From the NCBI GenBank assembly GCA_963745835.1, contig CAVUZH010000017.1:1-20130 (forward strand): a stretch of DNA of 20,130 bases, in the 5' to 3' direction. Positions 110-19,939 of this stretch are shown piece by piece (within the stretch, counting starts at the first letter, position 1; each line of letters begins with the position of its first letter). This stretch comes from an uncultured delta proteobacterium (GTDB taxonomy: Bacteria; Desulfobacterota; Binatia; UBA9968). Made by a program: the position numbers and the translations under genes. The notes below the pieces were generated by a model. That model did no database searches. It was given only the letters and a program-made list of their open reading frames with translations, and had not been told where the DNA came from.

Positions 110-1006
110 CTACACTGAGTGGCCATGTTTTAGTTGCAGTGATTTGCGCTTTCTCAGTAGCTCGACGAAGTCTTTGGCTATCGGGCTAAGCGGCTTTCGT
201 TCGTCAAAGACAATAAACGACTGGAGGGCTATTTTCTTTAATTCAGCTACGTCCAATTTGATGAGCACTCCGCTCTCAAGACCACTTCTGACTGAATCGC
301 CATGTAAAATCCCAATCCCCACGCCCTTCTGTACGGCAGCTTGCACCGCCCCCGAGTTCTTGCACGATACGGCAACTGTCGGTTTGTAACCGAGGCCTAA
401 CAGCTCTTTCAAGATCTTGCTCTCTTTTCTGATCACGAGCGGAACTCGAGCAAGATCCGCCAAAGTCATCCTTTTTCCGCGAAGCGGACTTGAAGCGGGT
501 GCAAACGCGATTACCTCCAGCCTTTGATAAGGTTCAACCGATAGATCCGCCTTGTACGAAGGGTGCGTGATTAGCCCTACATCGACAGATGCGGCGAAAA
601 TCTGCTGCTCAATCATTCGGCTGTCATCCGTTTCGAGCGTGAACTGAGTGCCCGGATGAGTTTGTTCAAACTCCATGATCGCTTCTGGAAGAACGGTGAT
701 ACAGAGATCATGTGTTCCCCCGATCTTCAGAGAGCCTGGCACCGTATCGGTCCGAGCCTCGAGCTGTTTCTCGAGCTTGGCAACCTCCTCCAAAACCGGC
801 TTGACAGCAGCGAGAAAAGCCGCGCCGCTTTCCGTCAACGCAATCCCCTGTCCGGTTTTCCGATAGAATTGTCTTCCATATCGTTGCTCCAGAAGCTTCA
901 GCTGGTGTGTTACCGCCGGCTGACTCATATGGAGCTCACTGGCGGCATTGGTAATGTTCAAATGCCTCGCTACTGAATCAAAAATCCTGAGCTGGTGAAG
1001 GGTCAT
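110..1006 (-). CDS. LysR-family transcriptional regulator
   Basis: 298 aa. N-terminal LysR HTH (MTLHQLRIFDSVARHLNITNAASELHMSQPAVTHQLKLLE), then GIALTESG linker and a substrate-binding domain (GSLKIGG...AVQKGVGIGIL). Divergent from the adjacent operon. Confidence 0.96.
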   Translation of the reverse strand: MTLHQLRIFDSVARHLNITNAASELHMSQPAVTHQLKLLEQRYGRQFYRKTGQGIALTESGAAFLAAVKPVLEEVAKLEKQLEARTDTVPGSLKIGGTHDLCITVLPEAIMEFEQTHPGTQFTLETDDSRMIEQQIFAASVDVGLITHPSYKADLSVEPYQRLEVIAFAPASSPLRGKRMTLADLARVPLVIRKESKILKELLGLGYKPTVAVSCKNSGAVQAAVQKGVGIGILHGDSVRSGLESGVLIKLDVAELKKIALQSFIVFDERKPLSPIAKDFVELLRKRKSLQLKHGHSV

Positions 1007-2314: not shown

Positions 2315-2938
2315 ATGAGCATCATGAACAGTACAACGAACTTGGTTACCATATTAAGTCCCAAGGTCCGACGTGTTCAGAAGGCGCAGACAAGCACATC
2401 AAAGCAAAGTCTGACGCTTAGCCCCGTTCCGCCGGATTTAAATGGAAAAACCATCGGGTTTCTCGACAACGGTAAGAAGAATTTCGATGTTTACCTCGAC
2501 CGCACCGACGAGCTGCTCCGTAGACATTACACCTTTACGACTCTACGCCGCCGCAAGGCCGTGCCCATAAAGGGTGTTACGTCGGACTTGTTTCAGGAGA
2601 TGATCACAGGCTGCGATGTTGTAATCACCGGCAGCGGAGATTGAGGCTCCTGCTCGTCGTGGAGTCTTCACGACATCGTCCAGTTCGAAAAGCACGGCAT
2701 TCCTGCAGTGGTCATTTGCACGCATGTTTTTGAGTCTACTGCCAAATTTCAAGCTAAGGCGCTTGGTTTGCCTGATGCACGAATCGTTGTGGTACCCCAT
2801 CCGTTTAGCGGAGTCGATGCCGCAGAGGCGGCAAAAAAAGCGGATCAGGCTTTTCCTGCCCTGCTCGCGCTCCTCTCGCGACCTAATGGCAAGTCTGCTT
2901 ATTACCGTAAGGTAAATCGCCGGAGAAACCAGCCATGA
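2315..2938 (+). CDS. UGSC-family selenoprotein, copy 1 (207 aa, Sec at codon 110, TGA 2642-2644)
   Basis: ORFs 2315..2644 and 2708..2938 share one frame, separated only by a TGA. Read-through gives DVVITGSGD-U-GSCSSWSLHDIVQFEKHGIPAVVICT...VPHPF. RBS GAGGTG upstream, SECIS-like hairpin downstream, same arrangement in the paralog at 15124, and the stop overlaps the next start (ATGA 2935-2938). Confidence 0.9.
2656..2674 (+). promoter_or_regulatory. Putative bacterial SECIS hairpin, copy 1
   Basis: GTCGTGGA-GTC-TTCACGAC: 8-bp stem (one G-U pair) with a G-containing apical loop, starting 11 nt after the in-frame TGA. Confidence 0.75.
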
Positions 2939-4011
2939 AAGTTGCTCTTCAAGCCGAAAGAATCGATTTGCCGGATTCGCTCGAAGAGATCAATCGTTAT
3001 CTTTACGCCAATGGTATGACGGACGGTCTTCCGATCGTACCTCCTACTGAAGACCGGGTTTCACGGATGCTGGAAGGAACCAGCCTCGAACCTTATTTCG
3101 AGGTGGCCTCGCTGCCCCCGGAGTGGGCGCCGGCGACGGTCGAAGCGATCGCAATCAATGCCGTGATGGCCGGCTGCCTGCCTGAGCATATGCCGGTGCT
3201 GATCACTCTTGTGAAAGCCATGGCCCAGCCGGAGTTCTCGCTTCTTGGTGTCCTCGCTACGACCGGGGGCTATGCCGTTTCGGTGATGCTCAATGGGCCG
3301 ATCAGACACGAGCTGGACATTAACTGCACCAACAATCTGTTTGGCCCCGGCAAGCTCGCCAACGCCACCATCGGGCGTGCTCTACGTCTCTTTCAACTCA
3401 ACATCGGCGGTGTCATTCCGGGTGTAACCGACAAGTCATGCCAGGGCTGGCCCGGCAAATACACAATTTGCTGGGGTGAAAATGAAGAAGCCTCGCCGTG
3501 GACTGCTTACCATGTAGAGAAAGGTTTTTCTCCAATGGATAACACGGTAACGATCTTCGCGGCAGATTCTTTTTGTAAGATTAGAGCTGGTGGCACGGTT
3601 GGGCGTGGCGCTCTGCAGTCGCTCGCCTATGGGACGCGTCCGGTCGGCGCGGTGTTAAATGGTTGGGGAAACGGCGCCAAACCGTTCATAGCTCTCGGAC
3701 CCGAGACAGCTAGTCAGATTGCTAGAGACAATATTTCAAAAGCGGAAGTGCGCGAGTATTTTTTCGAGCACGCACGCTCGTCGTTCGATGAGCTTTATCA
3801 GCCAGAGAGCGGCGAAAAGATCAGCTTCGAGGAGATGCAAAAGCGCTGTACGAATCTTTGGCCGGACGGAACGGTGAGCATCGCCGATCAGCCGGACGAC
3901 ATCAGCGTTGTTGTCGCGGGCGGACCGGGCCGACAATCCGTCTGGTTCCCAGCCAACGCTCGTTCCATGCCAGTCACCATGCTGATCGATCCGCTTCTGA
4001 AACGAACTTGA
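2935..4011 (+). CDS. Uncharacterised UGSC-associated protein (TDGLP...NAVMAGC family), copy 1
   Basis: 358 aa. Motifs TDGLPIVPPTE, IAINAVMAGC-PE, NGP, ANATIGR, GWPGKY, GENEE-SPW-HVE-GF and VVVAGG are shared with the paralog at 15726. Translationally coupled to the selenoprotein gene. Confidence 0.88.
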   Translation: MKVALQAERIDLPDSLEEINRYLYANGMTDGLPIVPPTEDRVSRMLEGTSLEPYFEVASLPPEWAPATVEAIAINAVMAGCLPEHMPVLITLVKAMAQPEFSLLGVLATTGGYAVSVMLNGPIRHELDINCTNNLFGPGKLANATIGRALRLFQLNIGGVIPGVTDKSCQGWPGKYTICWGENEEASPWTAYHVEKGFSPMDNTVTIFAADSFCKIRAGGTVGRGALQSLAYGTRPVGAVLNGWGNGAKPFIALGPETASQIARDNISKAEVREYFFEHARSSFDELYQPESGEKISFEEMQKRCTNLWPDGTVSIADQPDDISVVVAGGPGRQSVWFPANARSMPVTMLIDPLLKRT

Positions 4012-4041: not shown

Positions 4042-5052
4042 ATGCCATACGATAGAATATTCGCAGCCTCGTTTTCTTTAGCGATCTTTTTCATCTGGAC
4101 TCATTGCACTCGCGCTGCCGAGCCGATGGAAGAAGCCAGGAAGGAAGGTGAGGTCGTTTTCTACGGCAATGTGCGCCAAGAGCATATCACTAAGCTCAAT
4201 GAATCCTTCCAAAAAAAATATCCTTTTATCAAAGTTCAGTATCTCCGCGCAGGTCCTCTGGCGGTTATGAACCGAGTCATGACAGAAGCACGAGTTGGCA
4301 GCCGGCTTGTCGATGTTATCAATCTCGATGTCTTCAACTCCTGGGTATTAAAGGAAGCCGGACTGCTGCAGCCTTATAAATCCAGAGAGACCGAAGCTTT
4401 TCCGGAACAATACCGCGATCCCTCAGGGCTCGTGCCTTGCTGCATGTACGTCTCAAGCAACGTCATCGGCTATAACACCAAACTTGTTGCTCCACACGAA
4501 ATACCTAAAACGTATAACGATCTGCTCGATCAAAAATGGAAGGGAAAGATCGGTCTTAAAAGCGACGACTCGAAATGGTTTGCACCGCTTGTTTGGATTT
4601 GGGGCAGGGACAGAGCCGTCAACTACTTTCGCGGTCTCATCAAACAACAACCCGTGCTCCGCGAGGGAATTTCGATTAATGGCCAGCTGTTGGCGGCTGG
4701 TGAAGTAAGTGTATTTGTAAATATCGCCGGCGATGTCGTCCTGAATCTGCAATCGGTTGGCGCTCCCGTGGAGATAGTCCAAGCAGCGCCTTCGATCTTC
4801 CGCCCTGGGAATTTACTCTTAGCCAAGAACGCCCCTCATCCCAATGCCGCAAGATTGTTCATGGACTACGTTCATTCAGCCGAAGGTCAACAGGTCTTAG
4901 CGGATTTGGGCCGAGAGGTGGCAAGACCGGGCATCAAGATGAAATACCCGCGGCTCCAACAAACGAGCAACCTCGTCCCAGTCAAGCCTGAAATGGCGAA
5001 AAACTATGATGAGCTACTTAAGCTATACGAGTCGATTCTTAAGAACGGGTAG
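4042..5052 (+). CDS. ABC transporter substrate-binding protein, Fe3+/thiamine/polyamine-like (FbpA/AfuA-type)
   Basis: RBS AAGGAG; signal peptide; motifs EARKEGEVVFY, YNTKLV...PKTYNDLLDQKWKGKI and APHPNAARLFMDYVHSAEGQ. Ligand not determinable. Confidence 0.9.
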   Translation: MPYDRIFAASFSLAIFFIWTHCTRAAEPMEEARKEGEVVFYGNVRQEHITKLNESFQKKYPFIKVQYLRAGPLAVMNRVMTEARVGSRLVDVINLDVFNSWVLKEAGLLQPYKSRETEAFPEQYRDPSGLVPCCMYVSSNVIGYNTKLVAPHEIPKTYNDLLDQKWKGKIGLKSDDSKWFAPLVWIWGRDRAVNYFRGLIKQQPVLREGISINGQLLAAGEVSVFVNIAGDVVLNLQSVGAPVEIVQAAPSIFRPGNLLLAKNAPHPNAARLFMDYVHSAEGQQVLADLGREVARPGIKMKYPRLQQTSNLVPVKPEMAKNYDELLKLYESILKNG

Positions 5053-5070: not shown

Positions 5071-6051
5071 ATGATGGGAATAATCACAGTCGTCTTAATG
5101 CTCGTCTGCTTGCTGATGCAACCAGCCTTGGCTGCCGACAAGATTCGGATCGGATACTCCGGCTTAAGCCCGGCCACCGGGATGCTATGGGTTACTCAGG
5201 AGGCTAAGCTCTTCGAAAAGAATGGTCTTGCTCCCGAAGTGCTGTTCCTGCGTAACAACCTGGGCCAGGCGGCATTGATCGCGGGGGAAATCGAAATGTG
5301 CGGTTATTCCGCAAGCCTGTTGGCGCCCGCGCGTGTGCAAGGAGCCGATCCGTTGATGATCGTGAGCTTTCAGAAAAAGCTAAACTATCGTCTGGTGGTT
5401 CGGCCGGAGATTCGGACCTTGGAGGATCTCAAAGGCAAGGTTCTCGGGGTTACCCGTTATGGCACGGTGAACGATTGGACGATGCGACTGCTGCTCAACA
5501 AGCTGGGAATTAACCCCGAACGGGATGTCAGGTTGATTCAGGTAGGGGATTCGGCTCCCGCCGTCGCGACGTCGCTCATTGCCGGCAAAACGTTTGACGG
5601 CGCCCTGCTTCAGCCGCCTTTTTACAATAAGGCCGTGGAAACCGGTATGCGGGTCTTTGCCAATATGGAAGAGATGGACATTGCATTTCAGCAGACAGGG
5701 CTCAACACCACGCAGAGGTATATCACCAAAAATCCCGATATAGTACGCCGCGTCGTGAAGTCGGTCGTAGAGGGCGTGCATTTGATCCATACTAATCCAG
5801 CGCTGGCGAAGCGCGCGATCAGCCGTTACATGCAGATCAAAGATGAGAAGGCGGTCGAGGAGTCCTATCAGCAGCTGAAATCGACTTCTGAAATTAAACC
5901 TTATCCTTCGGCGGAGGGCTTCAAAACGATATTGGATGACTTGGCTAAAAAACTCCCGGCCGCGCGCACGGCAAACCCTCGGGACTTCATGGATGCGCGG
6001 TTTATTCAGGAACTGGACAAATCGGGATACATCGACGGCTTGTACAGGTGA
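5071..6051 (+). CDS. ABC transporter substrate-binding protein, NitT/TauT family
   Basis: Signal peptide ending ALA-ADKIRIGYSG; LKGKVLGVTRYGT; C-terminal FIQELDKSGYIDGLYR. Close paralog of the gene at 18072. Confidence 0.92.
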   Translation: MMGIITVVLMLVCLLMQPALAADKIRIGYSGLSPATGMLWVTQEAKLFEKNGLAPEVLFLRNNLGQAALIAGEIEMCGYSASLLAPARVQGADPLMIVSFQKKLNYRLVVRPEIRTLEDLKGKVLGVTRYGTVNDWTMRLLLNKLGINPERDVRLIQVGDSAPAVATSLIAGKTFDGALLQPPFYNKAVETGMRVFANMEEMDIAFQQTGLNTTQRYITKNPDIVRRVVKSVVEGVHLIHTNPALAKRAISRYMQIKDEKAVEESYQQLKSTSEIKPYPSAEGFKTILDDLAKKLPAARTANPRDFMDARFIQELDKSGYIDGLYR

Positions 6052-6075: not shown

Positions 6076-7161
6076 ATGCTGAGGAAACAATCTTGGAAAA
6101 TAACGGTTCTGGTCGTTTCTATTTTCTCCTTGTTCGGCTCCCATTCCGGACTGGTGCTCGCGCAGAGCCGCAGCGAGACGCTGCAAGCGATCTCTAAATT
6201 AAAGGGAAACGAAAGAGAAACAAAGCTTCGGGAAGGTGCCCGCAAAGAGGGAAATCTGATCTGGTATTCGAGCACCACCGCGGAAGATTCATTGGCACTG
6301 AATCGCAAATTCCAGGAGATCTATCCGTTCGTGAAGGTGCAGCATCTCCGCGCGCCGAGTGAGAAGATGATCGAAAGGATCCTGCTTGAGTCGCGGGCAG
6401 GCAGCTTCAAAGCCGATCTTGTTGCTCTGCCGGAGATCGAGCTGACGGTTTTGACCCAAAGAAAATTACTGTTGAAACATGCCGGTTTAGAGCACGAGGC
6501 GTTTCCCGCCGATGTCAAAGACCCGATGGGTTACTGGACGGGAATCTATGTGACTGCCTGGGTACTCGCCTATAATACCAATCTGCTGACAGCCCAGGCC
6601 GCGCCGAAAACCTATGCCGATCTGCTTAATCCCAAGTGGAAAAAACTGATGGGAATGGACACTGAACCTTACTCCTGGTTCATCACTTCCTTCCGCTATC
6701 TGGAAAGCCGGCAAGGCACGGCTGGAGCAACGGAATATTTCAAACGGTTGGCGTCTCAAGAGCTCGAATGGCGCAAAGGCCACAGCCTGATCGGTCAACT
6801 CATCGCGGCAGGGGAGTTCCCCATCGGCGTGGAGATGCAGGCCGGCTCGGTGGAGCGACTCAAGGCGCAGGGCGCTCCCGTCGATTGGGTGGCATTGGAT
6901 GGAGTCATGCCGATTAACAACGTTGGCATCAGCGTTACAACGGCGGGAGCCAATACACATGCTGCTTTGCTATATTATGATTTTCTTCTCTCCCGCACGG
7001 GCATGGAGATTATGAAATCCCGTAATAGAATTCCCACCCGTCCCGACGTTACAGTTCCCTATCTGAAGCCCTACAAGCTGCTGCCTTTCGATGCCCAGGT
7101 GGTGGATCACTTCGATCGTTACATCACCCAATTCAAAGACCTACTCAAACCCCGATCATGA
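6076..7161 (+). CDS. ABC transporter substrate-binding protein, Fe3+/thiamine/polyamine-like
   Basis: RBS AAGGAG; signal peptide; motifs GARKEGNLIWYS, YNTNLL...PKTYADLLNPKWK and AALLYYDFLLS. Paralog of the gene at 4042. Confidence 0.9.
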   Translation: MLRKQSWKITVLVVSIFSLFGSHSGLVLAQSRSETLQAISKLKGNERETKLREGARKEGNLIWYSSTTAEDSLALNRKFQEIYPFVKVQHLRAPSEKMIERILLESRAGSFKADLVALPEIELTVLTQRKLLLKHAGLEHEAFPADVKDPMGYWTGIYVTAWVLAYNTNLLTAQAAPKTYADLLNPKWKKLMGMDTEPYSWFITSFRYLESRQGTAGATEYFKRLASQELEWRKGHSLIGQLIAAGEFPIGVEMQAGSVERLKAQGAPVDWVALDGVMPINNVGISVTTAGANTHAALLYYDFLLSRTGMEIMKSRNRIPTRPDVTVPYLKPYKLLPFDAQVVDHFDRYITQFKDLLKPRS

Positions 7162-10671: not shown

Positions 10672-11658
10672 CTATTTTCCCCTTGCCTTCCTCTCCTGAG
10701 CAAGCTGCTCTAGGAAAGATAAATCCAATAACTCGAGAACGTTCAATTTCATCGAGGAGAGATTCTTATCGTTGGCAATCACGTTCTCCATCGCTTTAGC
10801 CGTAACGATCGGCAATCCCGGAGTTACCTGACTATAGACTCTGCGGGTCTCTTCCAGCTCCTCGACTACGTTGGAACGATAGTATTCACCCAAATATTTA
10901 AGAACTCGATCTTTGTTTCTCTCGTCCCGGTAAAAGTCCATTCCATCGGCCAATCCGCGCATAAAGTTCATGACCGTCTCCCTATCGGTGCGGATGAACG
11001 ACCGCATGGTCACCGGTCCGGCAATTGTGTATTCGAAATCCTCCTTGGAAAAATCGAGAAACGTCGGATAACCGGCTTTGCGCGCCTTCAGCGTAAAAGG
11101 CGATTGCAGAACCGTCGCCTGAATCTGTCCCAGCGTCAATGCTGTCCAACGATCTCCCTGGCCGCCAATGCCGACGATCTGGACGTCTTTATCAGGATTT
11201 AACCCGAGTCGCCGAACGGCGACGCGGGCGATAAAGTCCGTGCTCGATCCAATTTGACTGACGCCGATTCGCTTTCCTTTGAGATCGGCATGCTGCTTGA
11301 TCGTTGGATGCGCCGCTACGATGTAGTCCAAGCGATTGCCGACGGCGCCGATTATCTGAAACTCCTTGGCGCCCTGCGCCCACGCCGCGACGACAGTGGA
11401 TGCGCCTTGGAGCTGCAGCGGCAGGTCGCCCGAGAGAGCAGCCTGAATTCCCATGAGGCCGCCGCGAATGTAGATGGGTTCGAGCTTCAAGCCGTATTTT
11501 TCGAACGAGCCCGAGCGGTACGCAACCCAAAAGTAACTAGAGGAACCGCCCAGCGGATACCCAACCTTAATTTCCCGCAACTTGCTATTCTGGGCAGAAG
11601 CAAAGCAGGGAAAAACCAACATGCAGCACAGCAGGTATAAAATTATCTTGCGTTTCAT
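10672..11658 (-). CDS. ABC transporter substrate-binding protein, NitT/TauT family
   Basis: Signal peptide MKRKIILYLL...ASA; LKGKRIGVSQIGSSTDF; GLNPDKDVQIV; FMRGLADG. Confidence 0.92.
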   Translation of the reverse strand: MKRKIILYLLCCMLVFPCFASAQNSKLREIKVGYPLGGSSSYFWVAYRSGSFEKYGLKLEPIYIRGGLMGIQAALSGDLPLQLQGASTVVAAWAQGAKEFQIIGAVGNRLDYIVAAHPTIKQHADLKGKRIGVSQIGSSTDFIARVAVRRLGLNPDKDVQIVGIGGQGDRWTALTLGQIQATVLQSPFTLKARKAGYPTFLDFSKEDFEYTIAGPVTMRSFIRTDRETVMNFMRGLADGMDFYRDERNKDRVLKYLGEYYRSNVVEELEETRRVYSQVTPGLPIVTAKAMENVIANDKNLSSMKLNVLELLDLSFLEQLAQERKARGK

Positions 11659-11718: not shown

Positions 11719-13545
11719 TCACTGTGTCCTGAACCCATTGCTCTGACTCCCCGGATTTGCATTCGGATTTTGGGAGTTCGACGGATTGTTGGAATTACCG
11801 CCTCCGGGAGCGCTGTTGGGGTTATCAGAAGCCAGATTGTGCCAGCTCTGACGGTTACCTTCGCACGTAAAGTTGCTTGCGACGTTGATATCGCCGGAAC
11901 CGATATAGCGGGTCTGTTTCGGATAGGGGCACAGCGGACGGCTGCGGGATGCCACTCCGAAGTAGCCGGGGTTGCTGGCCGTTGCGATAACCTTATCCGG
12001 CGCGACGCCGTTTTCCACCCAATTGATAATCTCTGGAAACATTTCGAAGTCATCTGTTGAAGGCCCACCACTACAATGATTCATGCCAGGCACCACAAAC
12101 AACCGTACATAGTTCGCGGCCTTATGGTCTTGGGCAAGCACGTCGTTGTACCAGTCGATCGTTGCATTAACTGAAAACGCGCCGTCCGCTCCACCGTGGT
12201 AAACGATCATTTTGCCGCCGTTAGCCTTGAACGCGGATAGGTCGGTGGAGTCGACTGATCCCAGCTCAGCCGCCGATTCGGTATATATGCCCCCTGTTTC
12301 GTGTATCCTTTCAAGGAAGGTATCGAAATCGAAATCCAGCTGGAACGGAACACAGTCTATGGCGGTGACAAACGGTATCAATGGATGGGCAGTATACCTG
12401 AGCGCTGATGATGCACAGCTCCTGGTTACTCTCTGGGCATTGTTGGTGGTCGCGTTAAACGAACCAAGCACCCAAGAGCGCCAGCCTTGGTTGAAGGTGG
12501 AGCCTGACCGACCGCCGATACCCGGATCCCATGGCCAGTTGGCATACAGCTGGGTTCCGTCGGAGTCCTTCATTCCCGCCATCACAGTCTGAAGCGCCGC
12601 GATCTGATCCGCCGTCAGGCAATCGGCGGTTTTTGCGCCAGTGCACGTCACCGCCGCCAGAGCGGCATTCACCCGACCTGACTTGCATGCCGGCATGTTG
12701 TCGACGATCCCGTCTTTAAGGCCATCCAGCCGATCGCATGCCGCCAAAACGGCATTCCGTATTAGTAATAGATCCTCGTCGGTGTAGATTTTATTGATGA
12801 GGGGGTTGCCTGCGGAGTCAAAGCTCGTCGCTATTTTAGCGAAAACTTGTGTGGCATAAGCGCCGTTCGCCGACGAGTGTGGCCGCAGAATGCCGGGATC
12901 TCCGGCGACGATGCCGTCGAAATGTTTCGGAAACGTCTGCGCCATCAGCATCGCTTCCGCCCCACCTTGGGAACACCCGACATAATAAGAAAATAGGGGC
13001 TTCTGTCCATAATAGATGCCAACCAACTCTTTCCCCACTCGAGCGGTCTGGTCATAAGAGTTATAGGAGAAATCGATTCTGGCTTGTGGATCGATGGAGA
13101 ATACGTTCGTGCCACCTACATTGGGATCAGTGTTGGTCTCATTATCATGTCCGGAATCAGTGCCGATCGTGACGTAGCCTAGCGGCAGAATAGTCGTCGG
13201 ATCTTCAACGGTACCGTTGCTGCCGCCGCCGCCGCCCATGTAGAATCGCTCGTTCCACGCGGAGGGCATGCGTACACGGAACTTGATGGCATAAACCTGT
13301 CCGAGCACACCTACTCGCTCGTTGATCTTGCCATCGACAAGACAATGCTCTGGCAGACTCTGGGTAGCCGGGGTAAGCACAGCCGACGTGATAACGACCT
13401 TCGGGATAGTGGGGCTGGTAAACTCCGTAAGGGAACTGCAGGCGACAATGGGAGCCGGAGTAGCGTGTGCGTCGGGGATCGCCGCCATCATCATAATAGC
13501 CCCGCCAAGACACCCGAGTAGTCGCGCCTTCGTAAAGATGTTCAT
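11719..13545 (-). CDS. Tannase/feruloyl esterase family hydrolase, MHETase-like
   Basis: Start at 13545 (MNIFTK) after GAGGAG; signal peptide; catalytic GCSQGG (Ser codon 12970-12972), YHGGADGAFS and PGMNHCSGGP (the CS-D-HC tannase signature); RPLCPYP; lid segment NQGWRSWVLGSFN...NNAQRV. Confidence 0.93.
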   Translation of the reverse strand: MNIFTKARLLGCLGGAIMMMAAIPDAHATPAPIVACSSLTEFTSPTIPKVVITSAVLTPATQSLPEHCLVDGKINERVGVLGQVYAIKFRVRMPSAWNERFYMGGGGGSNGTVEDPTTILPLGYVTIGTDSGHDNETNTDPNVGGTNVFSIDPQARIDFSYNSYDQTARVGKELVGIYYGQKPLFSYYVGCSQGGAEAMLMAQTFPKHFDGIVAGDPGILRPHSSANGAYATQVFAKIATSFDSAGNPLINKIYTDEDLLLIRNAVLAACDRLDGLKDGIVDNMPACKSGRVNAALAAVTCTGAKTADCLTADQIAALQTVMAGMKDSDGTQLYANWPWDPGIGGRSGSTFNQGWRSWVLGSFNATTNNAQRVTRSCASSALRYTAHPLIPFVTAIDCVPFQLDFDFDTFLERIHETGGIYTESAAELGSVDSTDLSAFKANGGKMIVYHGGADGAFSVNATIDWYNDVLAQDHKAANYVRLFVVPGMNHCSGGPSTDDFEMFPEIINWVENGVAPDKVIATASNPGYFGVASRSRPLCPYPKQTRYIGSGDINVASNFTCEGNRQSWHNLASDNPNSAPGGGNSNNPSNSQNPNANPGSQSNGFRTQ

Positions 13546-13635
13546 GACTGATCTCCTCATAATTCTGGGAATCAACCGTTGGCAGAACTTTTCACCGAAG
13601 TTTTTCGACATGAGCATTTACTCAGAGTCGCTAAG

Positions 13636-14016: not shown

Positions 14017-14904
14017 CTATTGTAAACCCAGCACTCGCGCCGGAACCTTTTGGGCCATGGTTTTGACCTCGTCGACGCTCATACCATGAAATAGTAACTG
14101 GCCGATGAAGCTGCGAAAGTTCTCCGCCGGCAATGGACTAAATGCCTGGCCGCCGTCCACCGTCATGGCGCACCGCTCAACGCCAACGCCGCGCGCCGCT
14201 TCGATCAACGGCTTCGGGTTCATCCCAGGACGATACACCAGCTCGATAATGGCGCCTTGGCCGGCCATCTGCCGCCGTAACTCCAGGGGCGTGTCGTCGC
14301 GCACATGGCTGACGACAATTCTCTGGATGCCGTGGCGCTGCGCTTCGGCTACCAGCATAAGATGTTCCTCCACGGAGATGTGACCGGTGGCGACCACCAT
14401 GTCGTTGGCCTTGGCGATGTCGAGTATCTCGTGCATCTCGGGCAACAACCGGCCGCGCTCATCGACGACTACGATACCAGGGCGGCCACGCAAACCCACC
14501 GGCGGGCGCGCCTTAGAACCGCTGCGTCGGCCTGAAGCGTGATACTCAGCGTTCCAGGTCGGAGCGAACAAAACCTTGCTGCCGATCTTCACCGCTACCT
14601 CTACGGCGAATGGGTTTAGGCCTCCGAGCGAGTAGTTCAACACCACCGTGCCGAACAAACTCACTTCGGGAAACAGTGGCTGAATCGTTCGTACCAGAGC
14701 GCCGGTAGGCCAGTGATGGCTCTTCATCACCACAGCGCGCATACCCGCCTCTTTTGCCTGGCGCGCCGTGCCGATGCCGTCGAGCCTTCGGGCCACGGCG
14801 AGATCAGCGGTCGGAGGCATGTCTGGGCCGAAATGGACATGCATGTCGATAGCGCCATGCATAATCTCGTCGATCAACGCGCTAAAATTTTCTTGCGTCA
14901 GCAT
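14017..14904 (-). CDS. Metal-dependent TIM-barrel hydrolase (amidohydrolase-like; DUF6282-like)
   Basis: GAIDMHVHFGPD (D-x-H-x-H), VMKSHH, ATGH, VSH and TVDGGQ metal-ligand pattern. Likely start 14904 after AAAGGA. DUF assignment is from memory. Confidence 0.78.
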   Translation of the reverse strand: MLTQENFSALIDEIMHGAIDMHVHFGPDMPPTADLAVARRLDGIGTARQAKEAGMRAVVMKSHHWPTGALVRTIQPLFPEVSLFGTVVLNYSLGGLNPFAVEVAVKIGSKVLFAPTWNAEYHASGRRSGSKARPPVGLRGRPGIVVVDERGRLLPEMHEILDIAKANDMVVATGHISVEEHLMLVAEAQRHGIQRIVVSHVRDDTPLELRRQMAGQGAIIELVYRPGMNPKPLIEAARGVGVERCAMTVDGGQAFSPLPAENFRSFIGQLLFHGMSVDEVKTMAQKVPARVLGLQ

Positions 14905-14989
14905 AATAGATCCTTTCGAACTTACTCGTCGTGGTCGCGCTGTATAGCAGATCCGTCGCAATGTGGAAAGCATGAATCACACGATCTCT

Positions 14990-15037
14990 CGTTATGAATA
15001 AAGTCAATAACCATCATCCAAAATAAGCATTAGACAG
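14990..15037 (+). promoter_or_regulatory. 48-bp LysR-type operator/promoter element, copy 4
   Basis: CGTTATGAATAAAGTCAATAACCATCATCCAAAATAAGCATTAGACAG; 38/48 identical to copy 1 without gaps; perfect dyad TTAT-N11-ATAA. Upstream of the second selenoprotein gene. Confidence 0.8.
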
Positions 15038-15123
15038 CCGGTCAAAATCCCAATAAGAGTTGATATGGTGATAAACGATTTGGGAAAGAGGTTAGTAATT
15101 TCAAACTCAACAGGGGGAAACAA

Positions 15124-15675
15124 ATGATTATCTTAAGCCCGGAAGGGAAGGCGCGAATATCATCGGAGCGGATTCCCGCCTTACCACGATTTGCAGATCT
15201 GAATGGCAAGACTGTGGGATTTTTGGACAACAGCAAGCCCAATAACGATCTATTGCAGTCGCGTTTTGAGCAGCTGCTGCGACAAAATTGCGATGTGGGT
15301 GGCGTTGTCCGGCGACGAAAGCTGACCGCGCAGCAAGGGGCGCCCAAAGCGTACCTCGATGAACTCGCTGCTCAGTCCGATGTCGTTATCAGCGGACTGG
15401 GAGATTGAGGGTCGTGCACATCGTGGAGTATCCACGATTCCATCGAACTGCAAAAAAGAGGCAGACTCGCGGTCACCGTCGTCTCTCATCCTTTTGAAGC
15501 GCTCGCGAAGTCGGAGCGCGAAGCTTTCGGCGCTCCCGATTCCCCTATCTTGATCGTGCAGCATCCGATCGGCACGGTGAAACCGGAGGAGGTTAAAAAG
15601 CGCGCTGACGCCGCCTTCGACAAGCTGCTCGAAGCCTTGCTCCATTCGCACCAGGGCACAAATGGAGCGTCATAA
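15124..15675 (+). CDS. UGSC-family selenoprotein, copy 2 (183 aa, Sec at codon 95, TGA 15406-15408)
   Basis: DLNGKTVGFLDNSK...DVVISGLGD-U-GSCTSWSIHDSIELQKRG...IVQHPIG, open to TAA at 15673-15675. Homology to copy 1 continues on both sides of the TGA. Confidence 0.9.
15420..15438 (+). promoter_or_regulatory. Putative bacterial SECIS hairpin, copy 2
   Basis: ATCGTGGA-GTA-TCCACGAT: perfect 8-bp stem starting 11 nt after the TGA, with pairing-preserving changes relative to copy 1. Confidence 0.8.
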
Positions 15676-15725
15676 GCGGTATACGGTTTAGCAACAGTAC
15701 TTCGGAGACATTGGGGATAAGGAAG

Positions 15726-16778
15726 ATGACACAGCAAGAACTCCAAGCGGAACGGATTGAAATTGAAGATGATCTTTGGGCGGCTAACGATTTTTTCGAA
15801 ACGAAGGGTTGGAGTGACGGACTACCGATCATTCCTCCTACGGAAGAGCGTGTCGCGCGGATGCTAGGCGCGACTAGGCGCAACCGGGATGAGGTAATCG
15901 GCACGGTGCCACCGAAGTGGGCGCCAGCTACTGTGGAGAAAATTGCCATCAACGCCGTCATGGCTGGCTGCAAACCTGAATACATGCCGGTGCTTATCGC
16001 CTCTGTCGAAGCCATCACCGAACCAAAACTTAATCTTTATGCACTGCAAGCAACCACTGGCGGGCCGGCGGTGATGCTCATCATCAACGGTCCGGTGCGG
16101 CATCAGATTCAGGTCAATGGTGAGTCGAATGCGCTCGGCGAAGGCTGGCGCGCCAACGCGACGATCGGTCGTTGCATTCGTCTCATCCAGCGAAACATTG
16201 GTGGCTCCTATCCAGGAACGACTTGCAAGGCAACGCTTGGTTGGCCTGGCAAGTACTCCATCTGTATCGGTGAGAACGAAGAGGCTAGTCCGTGGGAGCC
16301 GCTGCATGTCGAGCGCGGCTTTGACAAGAATTCGAGCACTGTCACCGCGATCAGCGCGGACGGTTCCGTTCGCGCTTCTGATCTTGACAGCACGAACGCC
16401 GCAGGTGTGCTGACCAATTTTGCTCAAAAAATGGATGGGCCTTCAGGACCGGAAGCCATCATGGTGGTCTGCCCGGAGCACGCCAAAATCATCGCCAATG
16501 ACGGCTTCAGTAAGAAGGATGTGCAACGGTTTATTTGGGAGCGAGCAGCTTACCGCATGAAAGATTTGCCGGAAGAAACTTTTTATCAAAGGGTAAAGCG
16601 TTGGTCACACCGAAATCTAACCCGTGAGAGTGTCATTCCTGTGACCGATCGACCCGAGGATATTGTCGTTGTTGTGGCAGGTGGTGACGGTTCTCAATCG
16701 CAGTATATCCACGTGTGGGGTCAGAGCACTCCCGAGGGCGGATCGACACGGTCGGTAACCAAAGCCGTACGGGACTAG
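15726..16778 (+). CDS. Uncharacterised UGSC-associated protein (SDGLP...NAVMAGC family), copy 2
   Basis: GWSDGLPIIPPTEERV, IAINAVMAGCKPE, RANATIGR, GWPGKY, GENEEASPWEPLHVERGF, VVVAGG; paralog of 2935..4011. ATG at 15726 follows AAGGA (the track starts at TTG 15711). Confidence 0.88.
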   Translation: MTQQELQAERIEIEDDLWAANDFFETKGWSDGLPIIPPTEERVARMLGATRRNRDEVIGTVPPKWAPATVEKIAINAVMAGCKPEYMPVLIASVEAITEPKLNLYALQATTGGPAVMLIINGPVRHQIQVNGESNALGEGWRANATIGRCIRLIQRNIGGSYPGTTCKATLGWPGKYSICIGENEEASPWEPLHVERGFDKNSSTVTAISADGSVRASDLDSTNAAGVLTNFAQKMDGPSGPEAIMVVCPEHAKIIANDGFSKKDVQRFIWERAAYRMKDLPEETFYQRVKRWSHRNLTRESVIPVTDRPEDIVVVVAGGDGSQSQYIHVWGQSTPEGGSTRSVTKAVRD

Positions 16779-17074
16779 CCTAATCTCACGCCGTCACCAC
16801 TACGGCGACTGCATTGATAGCGGTGATTGGCGCACAGCTTTTGGAATTTGCCCTGATACATTTATGCTAGGCTGGCTAGGGTATCAGCATCTTAGCCAAC
16901 GAGCGGCAGATCAATGTGCCGCAACGACGGGAAGCGACCGTTGCTGTTTAAAGCCATAGGACATCGGTTCGGCCTCACACGCTTGATCCTAAACTTTCTC
17001 AGCCTCACTTCATTTCATTTCACTAGCTGTATAAGCATGAACGAAAAATGACTAAGAACACTTCGGTAATCACT

Positions 17075-18040
17075 ATGAAGAGAATCTTTTATTTAATAGT
17101 GGCCCTGCTCTCCTCGGCTAACTCCACCGAGGCCGCCGACAATCTTCGTATTAGCTATTCAGGACCATCCATAAGCAACGCGCTTCTTTGGGTAAGCAAG
17201 GAAGGTAAGCTTTTCGAAAAAAACGGTCTCAATGTGGAATTGATTTATCTTGCCGGATCTCTAGGACAAAGCGCGCTGATTGCCGGCGAAACTCAATTCG
17301 CCGTTTACACCGGCCTGCTGATGACGCCTGCGCGGCTGCAAGGTGCGGATGTTACCATGGTCGCGAGCTTCCTTGATCATTTGTTATCGAGGCTTGTTGT
17401 ACGTCCTGACATCAGGTCTGCTGCAGATCTTAGGGGGAAACGTCTTGGCGTCACGCGTTTCGGTACGGCGTCGGATTTTGGCATGCGTTTAATGGTTTCC
17501 AAACTAGGCTTAAATCCTGACAGAGACGTTTCCATCCTACAAATCGGCGACAACCCAACACGCCTGGTCGCACTTCAAGCCAAAAGCATTGACGGCGCAA
17601 TCTTCGACCCGCCAGAGTACAAAAAAGCTGTCGAAGCCGGTGGCCATGTCTTGTTTAACCTAGAAGAGACGATGATTCCATACCAGCACGCCGGCCTCGT
17701 AACCACCCGGAAATTTATCAGCAACCGGACTGATATTGCACGGCGAGTTGTAAAAACTATCGTTGAGGGCGCAGCGCTCGTGCGGAAAGAGCCCGTTATA
17801 ACCAAACGAGCTTTGTCAGCGCGTTTGAACGTCAAAGACGAACGGGAATTGGAAGAGACCTATCAACTGTTGCGTGGATTCACGCAACCAAAGCCCTATC
17901 CCAGCCTAGCGGGGTTTCGCGCGATCCTAGACGATTTGTCTAGGAAAATGCCGGCAGCAAAGGGCGCTGATCCCAAAGACTTTTCCGAACCGCGATTCAT
18001 AGAGGAGCTTGATCGAAGTGGTTACATCAACAGCCTCTAA
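17075..18040 (+). CDS. ABC transporter substrate-binding protein, NitT/TauT family
   Basis: Signal peptide MKRIFYLIVALL; LRGKRLGVTRFGTASDF; FIEELDRSGYI. Start could be 17048 or 17075. Confidence 0.9.
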   Translation: MKRIFYLIVALLSSANSTEAADNLRISYSGPSISNALLWVSKEGKLFEKNGLNVELIYLAGSLGQSALIAGETQFAVYTGLLMTPARLQGADVTMVASFLDHLLSRLVVRPDIRSAADLRGKRLGVTRFGTASDFGMRLMVSKLGLNPDRDVSILQIGDNPTRLVALQAKSIDGAIFDPPEYKKAVEAGGHVLFNLEETMIPYQHAGLVTTRKFISNRTDIARRVVKTIVEGAALVRKEPVITKRALSARLNVKDERELEETYQLLRGFTQPKPYPSLAGFRAILDDLSRKMPAAKGADPKDFSEPRFIEELDRSGYINSL

Positions 18041-18071
18041 AAATAATCCCACGATTGGCTTACTAGTATCT

Positions 18072-19031
18072 ATGATCCTGCTCGTTCTGGTAGCGAGTAG
18101 GTCATCATCCGATGCTGCGGACAAGATTCGCATCGGCTATTCTGGCGTGACGGTCAGCAACGCGATGTTGTGGGTCACCGACGAAGCCAAGTTATTTCAG
18201 AAAAATGGTATTGAACCGCAAATTCTCTACCTGCAAACCACTCTCGGACAAACGGCAATGATCGCCGGCGAGGTCGACATGTGCGTGTACTCCGGCAGTT
18301 TACTTTCATCCGCTCGACTGCAGGGTGCCGACGTAGTAATGGTGACCAGTTTTCTCAACAAACCGCTCTATCGACTTGTTGTGCGTCCGGAGATTAGGAC
18401 TGTTGCGGATCTCAAAGGTAAGAGACTCGGTATTACACGTTTCGGCACAGTCACTGATTCGATGTCCCGACTTTTGGTCGGGAAACTCGGGTTGGATCCA
18501 GATAAAGACGTCTCCTACATCCAAGTTGGAGACGTCCCGATCCTACTGGCATCCCTTACCACGGGTAGAATCATTGATGGGGCAATCATTCAGCCACCTT
18601 ACTACCTGAAAGCCCTAGCCTCCGGTATGCGAGTTTTAGTTAATATGCAAGACATGGATATTTCCGTGCAGCAAACCGGTCTGAACACGACGCAAAAATT
18701 TATCTCCAAGAATCCCGACGTCGTGCGCCGCGTCGTAAAGTCGGTGATCGAAGGCATTCATATGATGCGTACGAACCCATCTGTGGCCAAGCACGCGATC
18801 TCGAAGCGTATGCAGATCAAAGATGAAAAAGAAATCGAAGATACCTATTTGCTGCTTAGAAGTTTCGTGCCGATAAAGCCCTATCCGACGTTGGACGGTT
18901 TTAAAACTATCTTTGACGATCTTTCGAGGAAGGTTCCCGCGGCAAAAACCGCCAATCCGAAGGAATTTGTTGATACCCAGTTTATTGATGAGCTTGACCG
19001 GTCGGGCTACATCGACAGCTTGTACAAATAG
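18072..19031 (+). CDS. ABC transporter substrate-binding protein, NitT/TauT family
   Basis: AADKIRIGYSG; LKGKRLGITRFGT; FIDELDRSGYIDSLYK. Start uncertain (ATG 18072; homology suggests 18051). Confidence 0.88.
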   Translation: MILLVLVASRSSSDAADKIRIGYSGVTVSNAMLWVTDEAKLFQKNGIEPQILYLQTTLGQTAMIAGEVDMCVYSGSLLSSARLQGADVVMVTSFLNKPLYRLVVRPEIRTVADLKGKRLGITRFGTVTDSMSRLLVGKLGLDPDKDVSYIQVGDVPILLASLTTGRIIDGAIIQPPYYLKALASGMRVLVNMQDMDISVQQTGLNTTQKFISKNPDVVRRVVKSVIEGIHMMRTNPSVAKHAISKRMQIKDEKEIEDTYLLLRSFVPIKPYPTLDGFKTIFDDLSRKVPAAKTANPKEFVDTQFIDELDRSGYIDSLYK

Positions 19032-19035
19032 CCTT

Positions 19036-19939
19036 ATGGAACAATATGACATTGTTATTGTCGGCGGCGGCATGGCCGGGCTGAGTGCTTGCCATGTATG
19101 GTGGATGGCTTGGTCGCAAGGTATTACTCGCCGAGCGGCAAATGTTTGGCGGTCAAATCATCAACGCGGATCAGGTGGAAAACTATCCCGGCTTTCCTGA
19201 CGGGGTACTCGGCGCTGACCTCGTCGCGCAGGTGCGAGCACAGGCGCTGAAGTTTGGCGCAACGATGCAATATCTTGAGATCACCTCGATCGAAAAACCT
19301 GATAGCGCGTTTGTCCTTCAATCGAATGACGGTGTTTATGGCGCGCAAAGCGTGATCGTCGCTACCGGGGGAAATCCGCGTCGACTCGGGATTAAAGGCG
19401 AAGTCGAGCTTGAAGGCCGAGGCGTTTCCCGCTGCGCGACTTGTGATGGAGCCTTCTTCGCGGAAAAACCGGTGGTTGTTCTCGGCGGCGGTGATACAGC
19501 TTTGGATGAAGCGCTGTATCTTGCAGGTATTGCAAATAAGGTAGCTGTCATTCATCAGACTGAACAACCGACAGCGAGTGCTGCGCTTGTGAGGCGCGCG
19601 AGAGGAAATGACAAGATCGAGTGGCTTTCCCGCGCTTCAATTACGGAAATCATCGGCAGCGAATCCGTTGAAGCCTTGCGACTCAGCCAAGGTGACGAAA
19701 TCGCCACGGCAGCCATGTTCATTGCCATTGGTTTTGAACCGGAAACGGCCCTATTGAGAAGCCTCATCGAGATCGACCGTATGGGTCATGCACCCGTCGA
19801 TCTTCATATGCAAACGTCTGTTCCTGGTTTATTCGCGGTCGGTTCCGCTCGACAAGGAAGCTCGGGACAAATCTCATCTGTCACCGGCGATGGGGTTACA
19901 GCCGCCATTTTTTCTGATCGTTACATTTCTGCGAAATAG
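19036..19939 (+). CDS. trxB: Thioredoxin-disulfide reductase-like flavoprotein with a +1 frameshift near the 5' end (pseudogene or sequencing error)
   Basis: MEQYDIVIVGGGMAGLSA begins at 19036 and continues as AMYGG...GGQI...VENYPGF...GRGVSRCATCDG...GGGDTALDEA...TSVPGLFAVG in the next frame. One extra T at 19089/19090; removing it gives 300 aa. Confidence 0.85.

Follow-up and report, generated by a model that had tools for sequence, protein, structure and literature searches.

Proteins of the UGSC family are listed as selenoproteins in two earlier surveys, from which Zhang and Gladyshev's name 'UGSC-containing protein' derives (PMC1976440, 2007; PMC2398784, 2008), and in a 2026 review that places them among the selenoproteins whose functions 'remain largely uncharacterized' (PMC13188914). 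For ocean metagenomes, 255 Sec forms and 21 Cys forms have been tabulated (PMC2398784, Table 2), and in the same paper a fusion of UGSC to an unnamed domain, 'Unknown_1', was already reported and a thioredoxin-fold oxidoreductase was proposed for the family. For the bacterial SECIS element, the bSECISearch consensus, as given in the review (PMC13188914, section 5, Fig. 2 legend), consists of an upper stem of 4-16 bp capped by an apical loop of 3-9 nt, a G within the first two positions of the loop that is usually followed by G or U, a distance of 16-37 nt from the UGA to the apical loop, and a minimum free energy (MFE) of at most -7.5 kcal/mol. In the portions of the literature searched, we found no statement on the fold of UGSC, on covariation of its SECIS element, on near-obligate pairing with a second gene, or on a weak link to GrdB and PrdB.

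The window analysed here, a 20,130-nt stretch of DNA, contains two UGSC genes, copy 1 and copy 2, and each is followed by a gene for a second protein, hereafter the partner; the pair of UGSC and partner has been duplicated whole within the window (Table 1). Copy 2 is a further member of an already catalogued selenoprotein family with its own NCBIfam and Pfam models. In particular, the scores against NF041046, "UGSC family (seleno)protein", are 133.8 bits for copy 2 and 143.5 bits for copy 1 (both above the curated cut-off of 125 bits), and the corresponding values for PF24696 (cut-off 25 bits) are 153.1 bits (E 1.1e-44) and 168 bits (E 3e-49). The U/C-G-S-C motif occurs in both copies as GD-U-GSC, and its U/C position, its G and its second C are conserved without exception across the 36 aligned members.

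In a plain listing of open reading frames, copy 2 runs from 15124 to 15408 on the forward strand (94 aa) and is terminated by the TGA at 15406-15408; when that TGA is read as U, 88 further codons follow in frame up to the TAA at 15673-15675, for a total of 183 residues. The original prediction was of a hidden selenoprotein; the selenoprotein reading stands, but the protein is hidden only from the plain listing, its family having been described before. The locus is a textbook annotation case, in that a plain ORF caller splits the selenoprotein in two and the correct reading restores 183 residues. Many relatives in the databases end exactly at the UGA (18 of 28 matches cover at most 51% of the query), some public gene calls put W at the UGA column (P0003-5, P0007-10), and most public entries for relatives either stop short at the UGA or wrongly have Trp there. 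A promoter and terminator consensus scan of positions 14900-17100 found none.

Table 1. Positions of the UGSC genes, their partner genes and associated elements in the window.
Feature	Position	Strand	Basis or remark
UGSC copy 1 (paralogue), in-frame TGA 2642-2644, hairpin 2656-2674	2315..2938	+	Translation, profile matches
Partner gene of copy 1, 358 aa	2935..4011	+	46% identical to 15726-16778, E 2e-96
Shine-Dalgarno-like GGGGGA, 5 nt upstream of ATG	15113..15118	+	Read from sequence
UGSC-family selenoprotein gene, copy 2	15124..15675	+	183 codons, ATG 15124 to TAA 15673-15675; translated with TGA=U
UGA codon 95, putative selenocysteine, first residue of U-G-S-C motif	15406..15408	+	TGA/Cys codon column
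11-nt spacer, UGA to hairpin	15409..15419	+	Folding
Cys98 codon TGC, C of U-x-x-C, presumed resolving cysteine	15415..15417	+	Invariant in 36/36 aligned members
SECIS-type hairpin, 8-bp stem (15420-15427 with 15431-15438), GUA loop 15428-15430	15420..15438	+	Folding, covariation
Partner gene of copy 2, 350 aa, no Pfam/NCBIfam family, starts 50 nt past UGSC stop	15726..16778	+	ORF, relatives
Thioredoxin-reductase-like flavoprotein, CATC motif, possible electron donor	19036..19939	+	Split over two frames near 19090

The in-frame TGA of copy 1 is its codon 110 and is followed by 97 codons to a stop TGA (2936-2938) that overlaps the start ATG (2935-2937) of its own partner gene. BLASTP aligns the two copies over their full length at 41% identity (E 1e-40) and puts their in-frame TGAs in one column, within GD-U-GSC, consistent with the claim that two diverged copies both have TGA at the same position. 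The parts that follow the TGA are 45% identical (E 5e-20) and those that precede it 37% identical (E 4e-18). Because the identity after the TGA is far beyond chance and no lower than that before it, the downstream homology is real, as had been proposed when the frame of copy 2 was said to stay open past 15408 for 88 more codons homologous to copy 1. (The strings GSCTSWSIHD, HPIG and KKRADAAF, quoted in support of that proposal, are all found in the translation of copy 2.)

Among 97 UGSC copies from outside the window (80 public loci), the codon at the UGA column is TGA in 72, TGC in 22, TGT in 3 and TAA or TAG in none, counts that, like those given below for the hairpin, are not counts of independent events, the Sec and Cys copies being related by descent. 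Apart from TGA, the column therefore holds nothing but Cys codons, the classical Sec/Cys signature. All 23 orthologues of copy 2 keep the TGA in a layout of 94 codons, TGA and 83-92 codons; in the set of 24 orthologues, the frame is open for 83-92 codons past the TGA in every case, and the true terminators are a mixture of TAA, TAG and TGA. The median pairwise dN/dS in this set is 0.074 for the 78 codons downstream of the TGA, compared with 0.098 for the 94 codons upstream of it (276 pairs, with dS finite in 229 and 173 pairs and partly saturated), and the corresponding medians of dN are 0.114 and 0.179. Purifying selection after the TGA is thus at least as strong as before it. Two observations had been named in advance as refuting the prediction, a loss of purifying selection downstream of the UGA and frequent TAA or TAG at its column; both were looked for, and neither was seen.

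The hairpin that follows the UGA has an MFE of -9.5 kcal/mol in copy 2 and -8.2 kcal/mol in copy 1, and in both copies a 3-nt loop (GUA in copy 2, GUC in copy 1) sits on an 8-bp stem. The 11-nt spacer and the 8-nt 5' arm together separate UGA and loop by 19 nt, and in all four respects (loop and stem size, the G and U of the loop, spacing and MFE) the hairpin of copy 2 lies within the bacterial SECIS consensus. Full 8-bp pairing is found in 59 of 74 Sec copies and in 2 of 25 Cys copies, and the loop reads GTN in 70/74 Sec copies and 2/25 Cys copies. Moreover, 94.7% of the cells in the hairpin alignment are paired, compensatory changes occur at five of the eight pairs, and none of 500 shuffles reached the observed covariation score. 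Synonymous codons are frozen inside the hairpin across the 24 orthologues, with Ser100 always encoded by TCG, Ser102 by AGT and His104 by CAC, and comparable freezing is seen in 0 of 82 other conserved-residue codons. The hairpin overlaps the conserved S-W-S-x-H-D peptide, so that protein and RNA constraints are superimposed here. Compared with shuffled sequences, the folding of whole segments after the UGAs was not unusual at 60 nt (z = -1.68 and -0.03) and not significant at 51 nt (z = -0.46 and -0.31), and the 48 nt that follow the column had similar MFE values in Sec and Cys copies (median -17.05 versus -16.3, p = 0.58). Note that Sec and Cys forms are separated by the specific 8-bp hairpin only and not by the total MFE of the 48 nt. 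Rfam gave no match for the whole window at gathering thresholds, nor for positions 15350-15520 at E values up to 10.

We consider it very likely that positions 15124-15675 are a single gene for a UGSC-family selenoprotein, and the TGA at codon 95 most likely encodes selenocysteine. That the UGA is under selection as a sense codon, as originally predicted, agrees with the TGA/Cys-only column, the low downstream dN/dS, the SECIS-type hairpin and the matches to curated models. With a ribosome positioned at the UGA, the hairpin at 15420-15438 would bring in the SelB-tRNA(Sec) complex. None of selA, selB, selC and selD is among the 16 window ORFs scanned, which represent 20 kb of genome, and tRNA scans gave no tRNA for the window and no tRNA-Sec for any of 58 loci. 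(Nothing follows from the missing tRNA-Sec, since genes of this kind are not necessarily linked.)

Two other ways of reading the codon were weighed against selenocysteine. If the TGA were a real stop, then copy 2 would be a truncated gene or a pseudogene with a decaying downstream remnant, or the codon would reflect a sequencing error. The plain ORF call that terminates at 15408, the many database relatives that end exactly there and the Sec machinery not seen in the window all agree with a real stop; however, a frame that is open in all 24 orthologues, purifying selection beyond the TGA, the lack of TAA and TAG in 97 copies, and paralogues that are more alike downstream of the TGA than upstream of it leave this reading hardly credible. 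(The earlier judgement that independent nonsense mutations or a sequencing error are unlikely is supported.) The UGA might instead be read through without Sec, either by near-cognate Trp or Cys or under a code in which TGA is sense, and the W at this column in some public calls fits such a reading, as does the fact that the inserted residue is undecidable from sequence alone. Nevertheless, TGA terminates 5 of 17 window genes, copy 1 among them, and thus is not reassigned genome-wide; TGA also ends some of the 24 orthologues, and Cys codons are the sole alternative at the column. Furthermore, the GU-loop hairpin has been retained by Sec forms but lost from Cys forms, a pattern that SelB-dependent recoding predicts and leaky read-through does not. 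We therefore regard read-through without Sec as very improbable.

For the partner of copy 2, we placed the start at the ATG at 15726, rather than at the ORF-listed TTG at 15711, because its relatives are 350 aa long. The protein contains a single invariant cysteine, Cys82, in the motif VMAGC (codon 15969-15971), and its family comprises 8,342 representatives at 50% identity. Members of the family range from soil Binatia to haloarchaea. A partner homologue lies within 1.5 kb and on the same strand in 88 of the 97 UGSC copies from outside the window, across Bacteria and Archaea. Natural fusions of UGSC and partner occur in both orders: 16 of 18 picked proteins of 528-570 aa consist of full UGSC followed by partner, 8 of 10 picked proteins of 414-453 aa of the post-Sec half of UGSC followed by partner, and both picked proteins of ~460 aa of partner followed by UGSC positions 2-92. 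In one fusion (P0287), an AhpC/TSA redoxin domain replaces UGSC.

UGSC and the 350-aa partner are predicted to bind. The modelled complex of a natural Cys-form pair, from locus L042 of Sphingobium wenxiniae, has a score of 0.79, compared with 0.00 for the best of three controls; 116 of 157 solved complexes and 2 of 215 mismatched pairs attain this mark. Agreement in contacts between runs was at least 87%, with a partner pLDDT of at least 87, in what is a model and not a measurement, made with custom alignments for a pair that is only 41-42% identical to the window proteins. The predicted interface comprises, on the UGSC side, residues adjoining the Sec/Cys motif and, on the partner side, an invariant P-T motif together with the helix that runs up to VMAGC; the equivalent of Cys82 is itself absent from the confident contacts. 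A gene pairing that is near-obligate, natural fusions and the modelled docking argue that UGSC and partner are worth studying jointly, and they provide a concrete handle on UGSC through one orphan 350-aa family.

With 38 partner members against Pfam and NCBIfam at E values up to 1, each family listed was matched by one member, and none was GrdE or PrdA. Sequence searches of the PDB with single sequences and profiles of UGSC and partner gave nothing credible (the top-ranked match, to a designed 'protein origami' chain, has E 0.016). By fold, the best PDB match to the partner was a class I fumarate hydratase subunit (E 1e-3, TM 0.26), which was not accepted as a relationship. In the ESM Atlas, the partner matched only unannotated clusters and one cluster with PF24696 in 16% of its members, and restricting the search to named clusters gave no usable match.

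The AlphaFold model of UGSC (pLDDT 91.1) is a strictly alternating (beta-alpha)5 domain of flavodoxin-like type, in which the Sec-Gly-Ser-Cys motif lies at the N-terminus of the third helix. Foldseek comparison to the PDB returned generic flavodoxin- or Rossmann-like folds with TM of at most 0.50 and, among the matches listed, no thioredoxin; a thioredoxin fold for UGSC is accordingly not supported by this model, which is a prediction and not a solved structure.

In our best reading, UGSC would be a dedicated small selenol/thiol redox subunit of the 350-aa partner, and the enzyme itself is probably the partner. In the scheme that we infer for the redox chemistry, substrate and electron donor of the pair, the two proteins would be made from a two-gene operon, Sec95 would attack an oxidised or substrate-loaded site of the partner, Cys98 would resolve the adduct to give a Sec95-Cys98 selenenylsulfide, and a thioredoxin-type system would re-reduce this bond. 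The flavoprotein at 19036..19939 might conceivably be linked to UGSC in function, although a thioredoxin-reductase-like relative lies within 6 kb of a UGSC gene in only 4 of 81 sources and the gene in the window is frameshifted.

UGSC might instead be, as earlier literature had supposed, a free-standing thioredoxin-like thiol oxidoreductase or antioxidant, with the 350-aa gene merely a frequent neighbour. A U-x-x-C at the N-terminus of a helix is indeed typical of redox-active pairs, but the confident (beta-alpha)5 model with its thioredoxin-free list of PDB matches, the proximity of the partner in 88 of 97 bacterial and archaeal copies, and the fusions in both orders together with the predicted binding make a free-standing role rather unlikely.

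GrdE and PrdA form a Cys-derived pyruvoyl group. UGSC and partner could, by comparison, be analogous to the Stickland 'protein B' reductases (GrdB/GrdE, PrdB/PrdA) but more compact, with the partner holding the substrate, perhaps on a Cys-derived pyruvoyl, and Sec95 cleaving a carbon-heteroatom bond. Such a relationship would fit the single invariant Cys of the partner and the weak matches of 19 of 36 UGSC members to TIGR01917 (GrdB), the best of which, that of copy 1 (E 4.5e-4), aligns residues 72-167 with positions 307-398 of the 431 in the profile; fewer members match TIGR01918, GrdF, GrdH and PrdB. UGSC and PrdB also have UxxC in common (PMC2398784, Table 2). The matches are, however, far under the curated cut-offs (19.2 bits versus 602.2), UGSC falls short of the cut-offs of all three selenoprotein B models (TIGR01917, TIGR01918 and TIGR04483), so that there is resemblance only, and the 38 partner members have no repeated NCBIfam or Pfam match. 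We thus consider a true Stickland analogue unlikely.

A broader and still speculative possibility is that UGSC and partner form a very widespread, so far unrecognised two-subunit Sec/Cys-dependent enzyme, with UGSC a miniaturised distant relative of 'protein B', that acts in the degradation of organic acids or of their CoA esters through a reductive or thiol-dependent step. The recurrent neighbours in 81 sources fit such a role: family III CoA-transferase (14), acyl-CoA dehydrogenase (12), enoyl-CoA hydratase (11) and MmgE/PrpD (8). (The census of neighbours left out cluster 4 and cluster 1, which includes 15250-15651 on the reverse strand, antisense to the UGSC gene; cluster 14, of 521 aa and no family, was treated as a spurious ORF, as it is antisense to the partner gene in locus L051.)

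Compared with the UGSC family as described by NF041046 and PF24696, the window copies have the same U-G-S-C motif, size of ~180 aa and Cys-form homologues, and there is no difference at the level of the family, copy 2 being one more member. Like bacterial SECIS elements in general, the UGSC hairpin is located directly downstream of the UGA and inside the coding region; its sequence is specific to the family, with no matching Rfam family. With GrdB, GrdF, GrdH and PrdB, UGSC shares the UxxC, an HMM similarity near the Sec region that is weak but recurs in 19/36 members, and a second protein encoded nearby, with which UGSC may cooperate. In contrast to GrdB, UGSC is much shorter (183 aa against a profile of 431 positions), and its partner showed no similarity to GrdE or PrdA in the 38 members searched. 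Finally, whereas the usual hosts of GrdB and PrdB are amino-acid-fermenting clostridia, those of UGSC include lineages of soil metagenome-assembled genomes (Binatia, Rokubacteria and Sphingomonadales) as well as haloarchaea.

According to the original prediction, the frame of copy 2 stays open past position 15408 in a stretch homologous to its paralogue, copy 1, and the two copies keep a TGA at the same position, under selection as a sense codon. Copy 2 is a single frame with an internal TGA, and when this codon is read as selenocysteine (Sec, U) the gene encodes 183 residues with a GD-U-GSC motif at 93-98; copy 1 carries the motif too. The copies align over their whole length with 41% identity (E 1e-40), with 37% identity before the TGA (E 4e-18) and 45% after it (E 5e-20), and the two TGA codons fall in one column of the whole-length alignment, so both the homology and the shared position were borne out. 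Note that in copy 1 an internal TGA is most likely read as Sec and a terminal TGA as stop within one gene. Both copies match Pfam PF24696 and NCBIfam NF041046, "UGSC family (seleno)protein", the latter with 133.8 bits (copy 2) and 143.5 bits (copy 1) against a curated cut-off of 125.

Features of the window, with coordinates
Feature	Position	Strand	Remarks
LysR-type regulator	110-1006	-	divergent from operon with copy 1
Solute-binding protein	1118-2206
UGSC copy 1	2315-2938	+
Probable Sec TGA, copy 1	2642-2644	+
Hairpin, copy 1	2656-2674	+	loop GUC; -8.2 kcal/mol
ATGA start/stop overlap	2935-2938	+	terminal TGA of copy 1 (2936-2938), ATG of its partner
Partner paralogue	2935-4011		after copy 1; 46% identical to 15726-16778
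Solute-binding protein	4042-5052
Solute-binding protein	5071-6051
Solute-binding protein	6076-7161
ORF, 483 aa	7482-8933	-
ORF, 464 aa	8978-10372	-
Solute-binding protein	10672-11658	-
Tannase/feruloyl-esterase	11719-13617	-	upstream of copy 2
DUF6282	14017-14973	-	upstream of copy 2
UGSC copy 2	15124-15675	+	ATG 15124; TAA 15673-15675
Probable Sec TGA, copy 2	15406-15408	+
Hairpin, copy 2	15420-15438	+	loop GUA; -9.5 kcal/mol
Partner, 350 aa	15726-16778	+	50 nt downstream of copy 2
Cys82 codon of partner	15969-15971	+	motif VMAGC
Solute-binding protein	17048-18040
Solute-binding protein	18009-19031		32-nt overlap with preceding gene, as called
Thioredoxin-reductase-like flavoprotein	19036-19939	+	CATC motif; split over two frames

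When 185,579 species genomes were scanned, 269 relatives were confirmed; the best 80 loci were kept and, when searched again, contained 97 UGSC copies beyond the two in the window. (These loci come mostly from Binatia or 'Deltaproteobacteria' MAGs, with Rokubacteria/Methylomirabilota, Chloroflexi, Nitrospinota, Sphingomonadales, Actinomycetes and haloarchaea among the other hosts.) At the Sec column, 72 of the 97 copies have TGA, 22 have TGC and three have TGT, and none has TAA, TAG or any other codon. Because one of the two search patterns sits in the N-terminal half, the scan was not blind to copies with TAA or TAG. All 23 orthologues of copy 2 (64-87% identical) consist of 94 codons, the TGA and 83-92 further open codons, and their true terminators vary among TAA, TAG and TGA. 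Nei-Gojobori estimates over 276 pairs of 24 orthologues gave a median dN/dS of 0.098 for the 94 codons before the TGA (dN 0.179, pN 0.159, pS 0.714) and 0.074 for 78 codons after it (dN 0.114, pN 0.106, pS 0.651); dS is partly saturated, with finite values for only 173 and 229 pairs, respectively, and the raw pN/pS values agree with these ratios. Purifying selection thus persists downstream of the UGA, and the prediction was right in its inference as well as in its observation. Five of the 17 window genes end in TGA, which shows that this codon has not been reassigned.

In each copy an 8-bp stem closed by a 3-nt loop begins 11 nt past the UGA, and both hairpins conform in all four respects to the published model for bacterial SECIS elements. 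The complete 8-pair stem is present in 59 of 74 Sec copies versus 2 of 25 Cys copies, and a GTN loop in 70 of 74 versus 2 of 25, counts that come from related sequences and hence overstate the number of independent events. In the alignment of 74 sequences, of which 71 are distinct, base pairing holds in 94.7% of cells, two-sided changes occur in five of the eight pairs, none of 500 shuffles reached the observed covariation score, and sliding the partner columns lowers pairing to 21-47%. Some of the compensatory changes alter the protein, with Trp to Cys accompanied by a synonymous change three codons on, and protein constraint alone can hardly account for this. Moreover, the codons for Ser100 (TCG), Ser102 (AGT) and His104 (CAC) are fixed in the 24 orthologues, among which none of the other 82 conserved-residue codons is invariant. 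Counting against a recoding signal, whole-segment folding energies were unremarkable and no Rfam model matched.

Some public entries represent the Sec column differently. Gene calls P0003-P0005 and P0007-P0010, from short metagenome contigs, have Trp there, the TGA having been taken as a sense codon of another code, and most other public entries of UGSC relatives end at the TGA; both are annotation artefacts. In two Archaeoglobi MAG contigs, L062 (~10208) and L065 (~4189), the Sec column holds TGA and the reading frame continues past it; the hairpin position has a CUA loop, which lacks the G. Archaeoglobi are not known to use Sec, and in archaea the SECIS element is usually located in the 3' UTR. 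These copies could reflect bin contamination, gene transfer or something new.

Each UGSC copy in the window is followed by a gene for a protein that we refer to as the partner. As UGSC and partner both have paralogues side by side, the two-gene unit was duplicated whole. For 88 of the 97 non-window copies, the same strand carries a partner homologue no more than 1.5 kb away (69 downstream, 9 upstream, 10 on both sides); of the nine others, three are less than 600 nt from the end of their contig and six have a partner homologue at a distance of 2.5-3.7 kb. In four loci from Nitrospinota and other MAGs (L064 3211-6301, L071 1944-6068, L075 3213-7345, L076 1-4076), three to four partner paralogues stand in tandem, followed by just one UGSC gene, which belongs to the GSCTLCSVHD subtype. 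The partner family is large: of 8,000 candidates clustered at 90% and then scored, at least 7,980 match it, and it has 8,342 representatives at 50% identity. The partner itself matches no Pfam or NCBIfam family, and in searches of 38 diverse members with E-values as high as 1 no family was matched repeatedly; the 120 matches listed all carry the source name 'hypothetical protein'. The partner has a single invariant cysteine, Cys82, and a confident AlphaFold model (pLDDT 90.6, pTM 0.90) with no credible fold neighbour in the PDB (best TM 0.26).

Fusion of two proteins in both orders is classical evidence that they work together. Among the 150 best partner-family representatives, 32 proteins well above 350 aa in length were selected for a Pfam scan. 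A full UGSC domain precedes the partner in 16 of 18 proteins of 528-570 aa, and post-Sec UGSC (profile positions ~98-171) precedes it in 8 of 10 proteins of 414-453 aa, counting P0177 at 24.6 bits (Pfam cut-off 25); the latter class would be the expected gene-caller product of a Sec-containing fusion. In both proteins of ~460 aa, the partner is followed by UGSC positions 2-92, ending at the would-be UGA. UGSC and partner are thus fused in both orders, evidence that the two work together. The exceptions among the 18 are P0222, without a Pfam match, and P0287 (530 aa), a natural fusion in which an AhpC/TSA redoxin domain replaces UGSC before the partner domain, a swap that suggests that UGSC supplies redox chemistry. 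Each of two proteins of >700 aa contains a pair of partner domains and lacks any Pfam match.

We also folded the complex of a natural Cys-form pair from Sphingobium wenxiniae (L042), 41-42% identical to the window proteins. It scored 0.79 (best of three controls, 0.00). Of 157 solved complexes, 116 reached this mark, as did 2 of 215 mismatched pairs, although these calibration counts apply only roughly here, custom alignments having been used. Across runs at least 87% of contacts agree, and partner pLDDT is at least 87. No similar complex has been solved, which makes recall of a known structure by the predictor an unlikely reason for this score. In the predicted interface, the conserved N-terminal strand of UGSC and residues flanking its C-x-x-C meet the invariant P-T motif of the partner and the helix ending in VMAGC. 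The model supports binding of UGSC to the partner and predicts a heterodimer in which the Sec loop rests against the conserved face of the partner. Sec95 might then attack a site on the partner, and Cys98 would resolve the resulting adduct, giving a selenenylsulfide that a thioredoxin-type system could re-reduce.

Of 81 sources, made up of the 80 loci and the window, only four have a thioredoxin-reductase-like gene near UGSC. In the window this gene has its ATG and first 19 residues, including GxGxxG, in one frame, and the remainder (~19091 to TAG 19939) in another, as judged against a 69%-identical relative in L002; the split reflects a frameshift or else a mistake in the assembly. The 6-kb surroundings of UGSC copies in these sources contain 756 ORFs of 100 aa or more, which were clustered and named from one median-length representative per cluster; those recurring included Family III CoA-transferase (14 of 81 sources), Amidohydrolase_2 (13), acyl-CoA dehydrogenase (12), enoyl-CoA hydratase (11), short-chain dehydrogenase (10), MmgE/PrpD (8) and acyl-CoA synthetase (7). 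Solute-binding proteins are likewise recurrent, and the neighbourhood points loosely to organic-acid or CoA-ester catabolism. The window itself has seven solute-binding-protein genes within 20 kb (five NMT1/SsuA-like, two SBP_bac type) and no transporter permease or ATPase among 16 ORFs scanned. The best NCBIfam match of its LysR-type regulator is NF040786, 'selenium metabolism-associated LysR family transcriptional regulator' (138 bits, cut-off 250); the adjacent 483- and 464-aa ORFs have no Pfam or NCBIfam match. DUF6282 occurs near UGSC in 5 of 81 sources, directly past the partner gene in L049.

Copy 2 is a member of a family already named in curated databases, and the finding is a correct re-discovery; the aspect that may merit further study is the orphan partner family, which apparently depends on UGSC as an obligate subunit. 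In the passages that mention it, UGSC is a selenoprotein of unknown function (PMC1976440, 2007), a major selenoprotein family with 255 Sec and 21 Cys forms in GOS ocean data, fused to a domain 'Unknown_1' and supposed to have a Trx-like fold (PMC2398784, 2008), and an entry listed with NF041046 among selenoproteins largely uncharacterized in function (PMC13188914, 2026); none of these passages reports a functional study. The Trx-like fold is not supported by our UGSC model (pLDDT 91.1), a (beta-alpha)5 domain in which Sec opens helix 96-111 directly after strand 87-93, because the closest PDB folds, with TM no higher than 0.50, are flavodoxin-like or Rossmann-like domains of a generic kind and not thioredoxins. 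Weak matches to the GrdB model in 19 of 36 UGSC members, and to the GrdF, GrdH and PrdB models in fewer, all far under the cut-offs, provide a lead that UGSC may be distantly akin to the Stickland selenoprotein B domain.
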